Source of the DNA: Naegleria gruberi | Lineage: Eukaryota | Length of the DNA: 7,142 nucleotides | Strand: one strand, 5' to 3' | NCBI GenBank assembly: GCA_000004985.1 | Contig: GG739133.1 | Shown here: positions 1,883 to 4,512 of the stretch, one piece after another | Position numbering within the stretch: the first letter of the stretch is position 1 | How the letters are laid out: every line of letters starts with the position of its first letter | Notes under the pieces: generated by a model | The model's database searches: none | What the model saw: the letters and a program-made list of their open reading frames with translations, nothing else | Told to the model about the DNA's origin: nothing | Made by a program: the position numbers and the translations under genes

Positions 1883-2833
1883 ATGAATTTTATTAAAATA
1901 GCCTCAGCCAACTTGTCTTGTTTTAATCTATCGAAACAAGCATGTTTACTCAATTCAATAGATAGAAATAATTTAAACATAATCAATATCCAAGAAACAC
2001 ATTGGGATAATTCAAACCAACAACAACTTAAACTAGCCTCAAACGTATTTAAAGACTTTTTAATATTCAACAGCTTCAAGACAAATGGAGATCATTATGG
2101 AGGTATTATAACACTCATTAAAAAGAGCCTCAAATGTACCATTCTTAATTTTGAAAATATAATTCCAGGAAGACTTACTAATGTTAAACTAGAACTAAAT
2201 AACAAAATAATTAATATAGTCAACTGGTATGGAAGACAAGATATGGATAATATATTTTTTGAAATTTTTGACAAGTTAACACAACTACTGCAATACTGTA
2301 TCATTCACAATGAATTACTATACATAATGGGTGATACTAACATGACTACTATGGAACATACTAAATTCAGTAGATTAACTCCTAAAGACAAAAAACTTAT
2401 AAATTGGATAGAAACTAACAGATTACACGATTTTACACCTAGAATTATCCAATCTTCCTTCTCACAATATAATGGTAATAAGGTCTATGCTAAATCTAGA
2501 CCAGATCATATTATAGCTAACATAAACAACATGGTGGAATGTATAGATATCAATGTATATACTCAACATAAAATTATTTCTGCTAAAATAGACCTAAACT
2601 ATCAACCTAAAAAGTTCTCTGATCCTTTCTCCAGATTTATTTATAATTGGACTAAAATCAAAAATAATATGGAAAATATAAATAATGAAATAATTAATAA
2701 CAATTATAATAATGTAGAAGAAATCCAAATACACTTAATGGATATTTTAAATAATTATAAAATAACTAAAAATAATAATACTTCTATAACTGGATGTAAA
2801 GAATATCAAATATTACTGAAAATTAAAAATAAT
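1883..2833 (+). CDS. Retrotransposon ORF2, N-terminal part: L1-type apurinic/apyrimidinic endonuclease (APE/EEP) domain (about 1883-2600) plus an Asn-rich linker. It is interrupted after codon ...KIKNN(2831-2833) by the inserted TIR element. The ORF-track end at 2872 is a 13-codon read-through into the insert.
   Basis: The protein aligns motif by motif to L1 EN: MNFIKIASANLSCFN (ITILTLNINGLN), NIINIQETHW (CIQETH), LYIMGDTNMT (LIMGDFNT), SRPDHII (SKIDHIV), HKIISAKIDL (SDHSAIKLEL). The ATG at 1883 directly follows the ORF1 TAA. Confidence 0.85.
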
Positions 2834-2863
2834 GAGCCTTGTCCGAAACCCTGTTTTTTTTCG
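2834..2863 (+). repeat. Left terminal inverted repeat of the nested element.
   Basis: See the element entry above. The outer 15 bp match the right TIR perfectly, there is a 4-5 bp divergent patch, and then T8CG is shared. Confidence 0.75.
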
Positions 2864-2967
2864 CAAAGGTGAGAAAGCCCGAAAATCGAAACAAACGAGA
2901 CACAACACATTCACAACAGCCTTTTCTTCTTTCGCTCCTCGAAACTTGTGCCGGGATTCTTTCTCCT

Positions 2968-3055
2968 NNNNNNNNNNNNNNNNNNNNNNNNNNNNNNNNN
3001 NNNNNNNNNNNNNNNNNNNNNNNNNNNNNNNNNNNNNNNNNNNNNNNNNNNNNNN
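2968..3055. other. N-run of 88 bp (assembly gap or masked sequence) inside the nested element.
   Basis: Seen directly. Confidence 1.
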
Positions 3056-3313
3056 TTTCGAAAGTGCTTTCGAAACTTTCACTCAACTGCAAGAAGTAAA
3101 ATATTTTTATGAGAAGAGAATTTCTTTCTGGTTGGTTTCGAATGTGGTTGTAAGGAAACACTTGTCACGCTTTCATTTACCCATTGTTTTGGCAAGAAGA
3201 TCCAAATCGCTTTCGCACAAAAAAGAATCCCTCTTGTTTCAGCGCTCACACAAATAACAAAATGTGATGAGAGAAAGCGAAAAAGAAGCGTGAGTGTTTA
3301 CTTTTTCAAAAAT

Positions 3314-3343
3314 TCGAAAAAAAAGCGTTTTCGGACAAGGCTC
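3314..3343 (-). repeat. Right terminal inverted repeat of the nested element.
   Basis: Its reverse complement, gagccttgtccgaaaacgcttttttttcg, aligns to 2834-2863. Confidence 0.75.
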
Positions 3344-4512
3344 AATCTACAACAAGTATTCCATAATCATAAAAGGAAATTAAATACCAACACCATAAAT
3401 TATTTGGACAGTAATGATTTAAACAACATGGAGTTCAAAGATAAATTACGATTTCTAGATGAAGAAATGGATAAATGTATAAAAATCAAATTAAAAGAGA
3501 GAAAACAAGCATTTATAGAACAAGTTAACGACTTGAGCACCAAAAAACCATTCAGTTATCCGTTTCGTAAAGAAATCAAAAATAGTTCAATATTTAATGT
3601 AACTTCCACAAATGAATTTGAAGATGAAATAATTAACCACTTCTCCAAAATGTTTAATTCAGAACTAGACAACACTGATATTGACTTTTCACTAATCGAA
3701 AATAATAATTTACAAAACATTAGATTAGACAAATTCACTAAGAAAAGTCTATACAAAACAATCTTAAACTCAAAGAATTCAATGGCAGGATGGGACAACA
3801 TACCAATTAAATTCCTAAAAATGCTAGATCCTAAAGCAATGGATAAATTTGTTATCCCATTTAACAATATTATTAATGGTAATGAAAATATTCCACAATC
3901 ATTTAAACAAGGAATACTCTTACCACTACCAAAAATTGACCAGCCAAAAAAACTAAACAATTTTAGACCAATAGTTGTACTACCAACACTCTATAGAGTT
4001 TTATCTACATTTATTAACAAACAAATTATGACAATTGTTAGTAACAATAATGGAACCTTAAATGAATGTCAAAGAGGATTTCTCGCAAAAAGTTCCACAA
4101 CTGACAATCTATCAGTCATAAAAACTGTTCTTAACAAATACATTCAGAATGGTAAATCAATCTATATAGCAACATTGGATATAAAAAACGCCTATGGCTC
4201 TGTAATCCATTCAAAATTAATAGACATCTTACGAGCCAAAGGATTTAACTCAAATATCTGCAATCTGATCGAGGATATGATGGCTAATCATCATATTAAA
4301 ATCCTTGCAAACGAAAGTTTATCAAAACCCTTCAACTCCACATTAGGAGTCCCACAAGGAGACCCTTCAAGCCCAATTCTTTTTAACCTATACTTTGACC
4401 TGATAACTAATATTTCAAAAGAATTTAAAGGAGTATCCATAGGAGATAAAACAATAACAATACTATTATATGCTGATGACATAATAGTACTCAGTGAAAC
4501 AGCATCCGAAAT
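3344..4512 (+). CDS. Retrotransposon ORF2, continuation: a linker (Z-like region), then the reverse-transcriptase domain from domain 0 through the YADD motif. The ORF then runs into the N-run at 4513.
   Basis: It is in the same frame as the APE part. The motifs are AGWDNIPIKFLK (PGPDGIP..F-like domain 0), FRPIVVLPTLYRV, QRGFLAKSSTTDN, YIATLDIKNAYGSV (F-DI-KAFD), LGVPQGDPSSPILFNLYFD (QG...SP.LF) and ILLYADDIIVLSE (YADD, 4469-4480). The ORF-track start at 3290 is an in-frame extension back into the insert. Confidence 0.9.

Follow-up and report, generated by a model that had tools for sequence, protein, structure and literature searches.

A LINE in the window, by which we mean the whole 7,142-nucleotide stretch of DNA analysed here, is interrupted in its second open reading frame (ORF2) by an insert (2834..3343, without an assigned strand) that is very probably a small non-autonomous class II terminal-inverted-repeat DNA transposon of the MITE type, lodged in the linker between the endonuclease and reverse transcriptase (RT) domains. 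The insert displays two of the features by which MITE-like elements are recognized, namely terminal inverted repeats at both ends and a 3-nt flanking duplication, for which a relative offers the uninterrupted empty site; deleting the insert restores the reading frame, and the restored frame is colinear with that intact relative. As an event this is unremarkable, a nested insertion by a MITE-like family that is not yet catalogued.

The interrupted LINE and its uninterrupted relatives

The LINE that was hit is of the APE type, young and otherwise intact, and belongs to the genome of a heterolobosean-like amoeba. It has the gene order of APE-type non-LTR elements: an ORF1, followed by an ORF2 with an N-terminal AP-endonuclease and an RT. 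ORF1 (518..1882, plus strand, 454 codons) is open throughout, with an Asn-rich N-terminus and a coiled-coil-like C-terminal half; it had no match in a Pfam search and is 52% identical over 128 aa to an ORF1 remnant on contig L001 of assembly GCA_050043615.1. Its TAA stop codon is directly followed by the ATG of ORF2, of which three segments are visible on the plus strand. The first (1883..2833, 317 codons) encodes an apurinic/apyrimidinic-type endonuclease, weakly recognized by the Pfam family Exo_endo_phos (E=7e-4, under the curated cut-off), and the start of the linker. The second (3347..4512) continues with the linker and the RT domain (RVT_1, E=2.6e-28) and is open up to a gap of 1379 N, and the third (6705..7142) encodes the C-terminal part of this LINE's ORF2 and stays open as far as the window extends. 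Neither ORF1 nor any of the three visible ORF2 segments contains a stop codon, so the host copy was intact when it was hit. An exact look-up of ORF1 and of the truncated ORF2 found no record of either. Further along the window there is, besides the second gap, an abrupt junction with another retroelement.

A preliminary description of this DNA had called the ORF2 protein L1-type. The family profile does match L1 endonuclease structures and full-length human L1 ORF2p (positions 4-862, E=2e-28), so that colinearity with the human protein stands; the type itself, however, is not established by it, as the RT core scores higher against R2 RTs than against those of L1.

The endonuclease frame is open from the ATG at 1883 to the AAT codon at 2831-2833, as had been described, and then runs through 12 sense codons of the insert (EPCPKPCFFSQR) before the 13th, a TGA at 2870-2872 on the plus strand, ends it prematurely; the RT frame contains no stop between 3290 and the run of N starting at 4513. 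Deletion of 2834-3346 joins KEYQILLKIKNN to LQQVFHNHKRKL in a single stop-free ORF of 705 codons, in agreement with the earlier proposal that precise excision would restore one continuous APE-RT ORF2. The accompanying argument that element plus one AAT make 513 bp (3 x 171), with both AAT codons in frame 2, turned out to be uninformative. Both figures depend on an 88-N gap within the insert (2968-3055), and because frame restoration is independent of the arbitrary length of that gap, divisibility by three is irrelevant. What counts instead is the codon phase at each junction, which does not depend on gap length either.

The closest uninterrupted relative that we used for reference, P0001, is an intact ORF2 of 1157 aa on L001. 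The reconstructed ORF2 is 71% identical to it, with no gap across the junction, and it is equally gapless there against three more distant heterolobosean ORF2s (P0002-P0004). This gapless colinearity bears out a secondary insertion into a once-intact APE-RT ORF2; extra sequence at the junction in intact relatives, which would have spoken against it, was searched for in P0001-P0004 and found in none. At the nucleotide level, a BLASTN alignment of the window to L001 breaks off exactly at 2833: the segment 1883..2833 is 73% identical to L001 690-1646, while the regions 3347..4512 and 6705..7142 are each 74% identical to L001 1761-2815 and 3084-3520, respectively. The case thus resembles other nested insertions read against a related empty site, in which a younger element interrupts an older one and an uninterrupted relative reveals both boundaries and duplication. 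It differs in that the empty site is provided here by a 71%-identical relative from GCA_050043615.1 and not by a paralogue from the same genome.

Ends, content and flanking duplication of the insert

On the scaffold the inserted element measures 510 bp, comprising 422 bp of known sequence and the 88 N. Its outermost 15 nt, GAGCCTTGTCCGAAA, occur at 2834-2848 on the plus strand and at 3329-3343 on the minus strand as a perfect inverted repeat (15/15), and these two are the sole matches to it in the window with up to 3 mismatches, where 0.04 would be expected. Allowing one indel extends the repeat to about 30 nt, with 27 of 31 alignment columns matching between the left arm (2834..2863, plus strand, GAGCCTTGTCCGAAACCCTGTTTTTTTTCG) and the right arm (3315..3343, minus strand, given as its reverse complement GAGCCTTGTCCGAAAACGCTTTTTTTTCG). 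Past 30 nt the similarity of the arms is weak, being reached by 13 of 300 shuffles, and long or foldback arms were accordingly dismissed.

The direct repeat that flanks these ends consists of one AAT at 2831..2833, the last ORF2 codon (Asn) before the insert, and another at 3344..3346, both on the plus strand. It is exactly 3 nt long, the next outward bases being T and C and the next inward bases G and C. Aligned at the DNA level, the two AAT copies correspond to a single GAT codon of L001, and because this comparison acts as an empty site it supports a real 3-bp duplication, which had previously been put forward only as putative.

It could perceivably be argued that the two AATs match by coincidence, the ancestral LINE having carried Asn-Asn-Asn at this point and the element having inserted with no duplication, or with one of 1-2 nt and asymmetric ends. 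At the local, A/T-rich base composition the flanks would match over 3 nt with a chance of ~0.042, AAT codons and Asn runs are very frequent in this LINE, and the APE-RT linker shows natural indels among relatives, including between the window and L001. Moreover, boundary shifts of -3 to 0 yield the identical excision product, so that only the symmetry of the repeats excludes asymmetric ends with a shorter duplication of 2 nt or 1 nt. That symmetry is nevertheless plain, as the termini GAGCC...GGCTC leave exactly AAT on either side. In addition, when only one AAT is counted the spacing matches that of the 71%-identical relative exactly for ~40 residues each side, whereas keeping both would demand a one-codon indel at precisely the insertion site. 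We therefore consider a coincidental match quite unlikely and retain the 3-bp duplication.

The junctions also bear on whether the insert exists at all as a single locus. The scaffold has the left junction (up to 2967) on one contig and the right junction (from 3056) on another, and the second gap and the abrupt junction to another retroelement mark the region as hard to assemble, so two repeat-ended contigs might have been wrongly joined over the 88-N gap. Such a mis-join would not, however, be expected to produce two junctions abutting the very same LINE nucleotide, reciprocal inverted termini, a common AAT and LINE halves that combine into one open frame. A scaffolding artefact is thus extremely improbable compared with a genuine insertion.

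The content of the insert sets it apart from its surroundings. Its GC content of 39%, compared with ~26% for the LINE, indicates that it is foreign to the latter. A short motif, (T)CGAAA(C), is dense inside it: CGAAA or TTTCG occurs 15 times in the 422 known bp against 0.9 expected, and none of 2000 shuffles reached 15. Many DNA transposons carry subterminal binding repeats, which this array resembles. A hammerhead-like reading of the CGAAAC motifs was considered and dropped. A structured RNA was rejected as well, an Rfam search of the element (at the gathering threshold, then at E<=10) having given no credible family and a tRNA search no tRNA. As to coding capacity, the 422 known bp have no protein relatives and the 88 N cover the centre; with its middle an assembly gap, the length of 510 bp is a scaffold figure.

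The following course of events would account for these observations. A transposase encoded elsewhere would recognize the ~30-nt terminal repeats, and perhaps also the internal (T)CGAAA(C) motifs, and would cut the target at AAT with a 3-nt stagger; gap repair would then duplicate the AAT. The insertion was probably recent.

Relatives and superfamily of the element

No further copy of the element came to light in the collections searched. In metagenome contigs, neither a pattern combining the repeat with a T-run nor an internal 21-mer had any match. A 15-mer pattern was found at 53 loci in viral contigs and a 17-mer pattern at at least 120 loci in prokaryote genomes, with one match per locus in both cases. 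When both element halves were compared by BLASTN with all 174 fetched loci, similarity was seen at the seed only, and we thus regard these loci as chance matches. Three related eukaryote loci (L001, L175 and L176) yielded nothing above noise when aligned to the element by BLASTN. A concatenated six-frame translation, intended to catch spurious ORFs in other element copies, returned nothing at E<=1 from 5.8 billion proteins. Among 1.84 billion representatives, phmmer with a 66-aa ORF segment (3057-3254) retrieved two proteins, P0065 and P0066, but we rejected both as spurious: they are tandem-repeat ORFs, and their scores add up one ~27-bit, 29%-identity match over 10-16 copies. The element is thus known from a single copy after searches of metagenome, viral and prokaryote contigs and of 5.8 and 1.8 billion predicted proteins. 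A literature search on heterolobosean MITEs or on Harbinger in Naegleria produced nothing usable.

With respect to superfamily, it had been suggested that a 3-bp duplication points to PIF/Harbinger or CACTA and away from Tc1/mariner and hAT. The negative half of this suggestion stands. A Tc1/mariner (Stowaway-like, TA) origin is rejected because the flanks are AAT and AAT, and a TA reading would need non-matching ends, remove 518 nt and break the frame; hAT is rejected because the direct repeat ends at 3 nt instead of 8 bp. Its positive half has to be narrowed. Non-autonomous CACTA/En-Spm (CMC) elements resemble ours in duplicating 3 bp with no strict sequence preference, in their short terminal repeats and in the abundance of short internal or subterminal repeats, yet their defining termini, CACTA/CACTG...TAGTG/CAGTG (PMC10741241), are absent from an element ending in GAGCC...GGCTC, and CACTA is consequently rejected too. 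This leaves PIF/Harbinger as a lead.

A PIF/Harbinger-like (Tourist-like) transposase type is our best guess, albeit a tentative one that falls somewhat short of even chances. It fits best by duplication length, by repeat length and by a terminus resembling GGCCTTGTTCGG. Like Tourist-like MITEs, the element is probably small and non-coding and has a 3-bp duplication and terminal inverted repeats that, at ~30 nt, lie within their 14-50 bp range. With its terminus, G(A)GCCTTGT(C)CG, it comes close to the founding Tourist repeat, GGCCTTGTTCGGTT (PMC11560428, PMC2631504): over the first 11-12 nt no more than two edits separate them, and the terminus is at edit distance 2 from GGCCTTGTTCG, a likeness with a chance of ~3e-4 per comparison. 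The resemblance nonetheless takes a 1-nt indel and one mismatch, and so fails the Repbase rule that positions 1-11 align ungapped with at most one mismatch (PMC4455052). Likewise, the PIF/Harbinger duplication is typically TAA or TTA (PMC10741241), while here it is AAT and no choice of boundary gives TAA or TTA on both sides. The host differs too, being a heterolobosean-like amoeba and not a plant, with no known PIF-type transposase partner.

Several other superfamilies, CMC/Chapaev-like, Zator and Academ in the Repbase and Yuan & Wessler classifications, make duplications of ~3 bp. The same insertion event might hence be owed to one of these, with their 2-4-bp duplications of no sequence preference, or to an undescribed superfamily, rather than to PIF/Harbinger, a possibility to which we would give about one chance in three. 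It is favoured by a duplication that is non-palindromic and not TWA (PMC10741241) and by the dense internal short repeats, which are typical of CACTA/CMC and hAT elements, and it is countered by termini that are not CACTA/CACTG and by the likeness of the first 11-12 nt to the Tourist/PIF consensus.

Splice-like signals and consequences for the LINE

The premature TGA that ends the interrupted ORF2 lies inside a donor-like CAAAG/GTGAGA, and an AG occurs 4 nt from the right end of the element, in the right terminal repeat (ACAAG/GCTC). If the GT at 2869 were spliced to the AG at 3339, all but 42 nt would be taken out, and the putative product would be in frame and stop-free with a 14-residue insertion in a linker that naturally bears indels among relatives. 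Of 3000 composition-matched shuffles, only 18 contained a G/GTRAG donor ahead of the first stop as well as an in-frame AG within the final 80 nt. The insert might, on this sequence evidence, behave as an intron, that is, as a spliceable, introner-like transposon that could rescue ORF2. It would then also stand for a heterolobosean family of DNA transposons not catalogued before, marked by its Tourist-like terminus, its non-canonical AAT duplication and its closely packed (T)CGAAA(C) motifs. Precedents can be found: maize Ds and dSpm are spliced from exons, and with these and with introners the insert shares terminal repeats, a position in coding sequence, donor- and acceptor-like sites near its ends and an in-frame product.

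A Willaertia gene on L176, from which a heterolobosean splice consensus was sought, gave no 1- or 2-intron solution. Several points make such splicing unlikely. First, the signals were noticed post hoc. Second, no branch site or pyrimidine tract is evident, and read in the other orientation the element would leave 49 nt behind, out of frame. Third, described introners leave little or nothing behind, whereas 42 nt would remain here, and the case differs from the known spliceable transposons also in consisting of signals in a single copy. Were it true, it would be of wider interest, as it bears on how transposons become introns.

On the preferred reading, the insert is a MITE-like element that disables the LINE it entered. 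Because ORF2 is cut short by the TGA that follows 12 codons of the element, at most an endonuclease-only protein could be made from this LINE copy.

Taken together, we argue that the two ORF2 fragments in the window should be annotated not as two genes but as a single one that a class II element has interrupted, and that this LINE copy is dead despite its open frames. A MITE nested in a LINE is otherwise routine. The site does, nevertheless, define cleanly both the boundary and the duplication of a DNA-transposon family without relatives in the large public collections searched, and with these boundaries a repeat library could be started for a lineage of amoebae that has been little studied.

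The LINE and its surroundings

The window is a mosaic of several mobile elements. To the right of a low-complexity ORF on the minus strand (2-475; ~40% GC) lies an A/T-rich non-LTR retrotransposon (LINE; ~26% GC), whose ORF1 occupies 518-1882 and whose ORF2, starting at 1883, is visible in three pieces (1883-2833, 3347-4512 and 6705-7142). The minus-strand ORF is rich in Ser, Gly, Asn and Tyr, is open and continues past the window's left end; its ATG and that of LINE ORF1 stand head to head, 42 bp apart. There is no spacer between the LINE ORFs, the ORF1 stop abutting the ORF2 start in TAAATG (1880-1885). 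The ORF1 N-terminus (540-770) comprises ~80 codons, nearly all Asn or Ser, in AAT/AAC repeats, and a Pfam search of ORF1 gave zero matches. ORF1 and every visible ORF2 segment are free of stops, their A/T-rich sequence notwithstanding, and the copy was probably young and intact at the time of insertion. The odd lengths of the two N-runs, 88 N (2968-3055) and 1379 N (4513-5891), suggest that both are estimated scaffold gaps.

Within ORF2, Pfam detects RVT_1 in 3344-4511 (2.6e-28) and, weakly and below cut-off, Exo_endo_phos in 1883-2833 (E=7e-4). A profile of five ORF2 proteins is colinear with human L1 ORF2p (4-862 to residues 8-872, E=2e-28) and also matches L1 endonuclease crystal structures; these domains and this colinearity thus place the insertion point in the endonuclease-RT linker. 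The preliminary description had called ORF2 L1-type. Its colinearity with L1 stands, but the label itself is not established, since R2 reverse transcriptases outscore L1 over the RT core with the same profile, and the host is called here an APE-type LINE of unassigned clade.

Beside the larger gap lies an RT fragment of a second retroelement (5892-6704; RVT_1 2.4e-26), richer in GC (~40%) than the LINE. It is 90% identical to the soil-metagenome protein P0019 (SRR3989338), and its distant matches include Acrasis kona and RT_RNaseH-bearing proteins. This element is broken within its RT, with an abrupt joint to LINE ORF2 at 6704/6705, and ~268 bp of the LINE (2816-3083 of L001, the contig of an intact relative) are missing or concealed by the gap 4513-5891. 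It is not a simple complete insertion; the junction may stem from a rearrangement, from template switching or from mis-scaffolding.

Excision, empty site and target-site duplication

The insert (2834-3343) is bounded by the 15-mer GAGCCTTGTCCGAAA, which is found at 2834-2848 (plus strand) and 3329-3343 (minus strand) and nowhere else in the window at up to 3 mismatches (0.04 expected). The inverted repeat reaches ~30 nt if one indel is permitted; past this the arms show a weak likeness, at a score attained in 13 of 300 shuffles. AAT flanks the insert on both sides, a direct repeat of exactly 3 nt. The endonuclease frame continues for 12 codons inside the insert to a TGA at 2870-2872, and the RT frame is stop-free from 3290 to the N gap. 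Excision of 2834-3346 gives ...KEYQILLKIKNN/LQQVFHNHKRKL..., a stop-free frame of 705 codons. The same empty site results for boundary shifts of -3 to 0, and only because the termini are symmetric can a shorter duplication, between asymmetric ends, be excluded. The terminal repeats, AAT flanks, reading frames and excision product described previously are thus all present in the sequence. The accompanying argument, that 513 divides by three and the two AATs lie in one absolute frame, has no bearing, because both points hang on the 88-N gap, whose length is arbitrary; whether the frame is restored is set solely by the codon phase at the two junctions.

The reconstructed ORF2 protein (insert removed) was searched against 5.8 billion proteins, among which its sole close relative is P0001, an intact 1157-aa ORF2 with 71% amino-acid identity (GCA_050043615.1; 693-4166 of the 4.4-kb contig JBNHEI010035159.1, L001). 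Together with P0002 from a Logan assembly (37% identity), P0003 from Willaertia magna (40%) and P0004 from Naegleria fowleri (35%), this match identifies the host as a heterolobosean-type LINE. In a multiple alignment the junction residues 317/318 fall inside a gap-free block in 4/4 relatives, and P0001 shows no gap over ~40 residues around the junction; extra sequence at this point in intact relatives was looked for and is absent. A BLASTN alignment of the window with L001 spans 1880-2833, ending precisely at 2833, and with MAFFT a single L001 codon matches both AAT copies (L001 ATT AAA AAT GAT ATT; window ATT AAA AAT AAT / CTA), so that L001 serves as an empty-site comparison. If the ancestor already carried two AATs, a one-codon indel precisely at the insertion point would be needed in addition to a chance flank match of 3 nt (0.042), and a genuine 3-nt target-site duplication is therefore well supported. 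The excision ORF, the gap-free relatives and the L001 codon alignment all support the original proposal that a once-functional ORF2 received a secondary insertion and that 3 bp of the target were duplicated in the process.

Content and affinities of the insert

With 39% GC over 422 known bases, as against ~26% for the LINE, the insert is clearly foreign to its host. Rfam, at the gathering score and at E<=10, found zero families in it, and no tRNA was detected there. CGAAA/TTTCG occurs 15 times in the 422 known bp where 0.9 are expected, a count attained by 0 of 2000 shuffles, its frequent forms being TCGAAAC and the palindrome TTTCGAAA. Subterminal repeats to which a transposase binds typically take the form of dense short-motif arrays, and the (T)CGAAA(C) array may represent such repeats. 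Two TTTCGAAA palindromes, 12 bp apart (3056-3075), adjoin the 88-N assembly gap.

The first in-frame stop lies within a consensus-like 5' splice site, CAAAG/GTGAGA (2869-2874, GT at 2869), and ACAAG/GCTC (3335-3343) in the right terminal repeat offers an AG at 3338-3339, 4 nt before the insert's right end. Splicing from the 2869 GT to the 3339 AG is predicted to be in frame and without a stop, so that 42 nt of the insert, or 14 codons, would stay in the linker. Although a comparable donor and acceptor pair arises in just 18 of 3000 composition-matched shuffles, the pair was spotted post hoc, and we consider it improbable that the insert is a spliceable transposon.

Exact pattern scans for further copies gave zero matches in metagenomes and single chance seeds alone in viral and prokaryote contigs; the insert, translated in six frames and concatenated into one protein query, had zero matches, and three related eukaryote loci held no similar sequence. 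Two tandem-repeat ORFs from HMMER (1.84 billion representatives) were rejected, their significance being an artefact of one weak match summed 10-16 times. The window's own proteins have no entry, and its genome appears absent from these collections, given that the protein search returned one close relative.

The 3-bp duplication had been taken to indicate a PIF/Harbinger- or CACTA-like mechanism. The CACTA half of this is rejected, as the required CACTA/CACTG termini (PMC10741241) are missing; so are Tc1/mariner, which requires a TA duplication, and hAT, which requires one of 8 bp. PIF/Harbinger agrees with the insert in duplication length, repeat length and, loosely, terminus, but AAT is neither TAA nor TTA, the usual duplication of that superfamily (PMC10741241). 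An edit distance of at most 2 separates the insert's end, G(A)GCCTTGT(C)CG, from the opening 11 nt of GGCCTTGTTCGGTT, the founding Tourist repeat (PMC11560428), which a PIF-family repeat resembles (PMC2631504), at a chance of ~3e-4 per comparison; the terminus falls outside the Repbase rule of an ungapped match over positions 1-11 with <=1 mismatch (PMC4455052). We file the insert as a MITE-like inverted-repeat transposon, for which PIF/Harbinger-like is the leading, if unproven, assignment. Duplications of ~3 bp are also made by CMC/Chapaev, Zator and Academ, and the insert may instead come from one of these superfamilies.

Proposed course of the insertion

We propose that a DDE transposase acting in trans bound a non-autonomous element at its terminal repeats and integrated it at a 3-nt staggered cut at AAT in the LINE target, repair of the staggered ends then duplicating AAT. 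With ORF2 ending 12 codons inside the insert, the endonuclease is uncoupled from the RT and this LINE copy killed. The insert is, in these terms, an ordinary nested insertion, of a MITE-like family that is uncatalogued.
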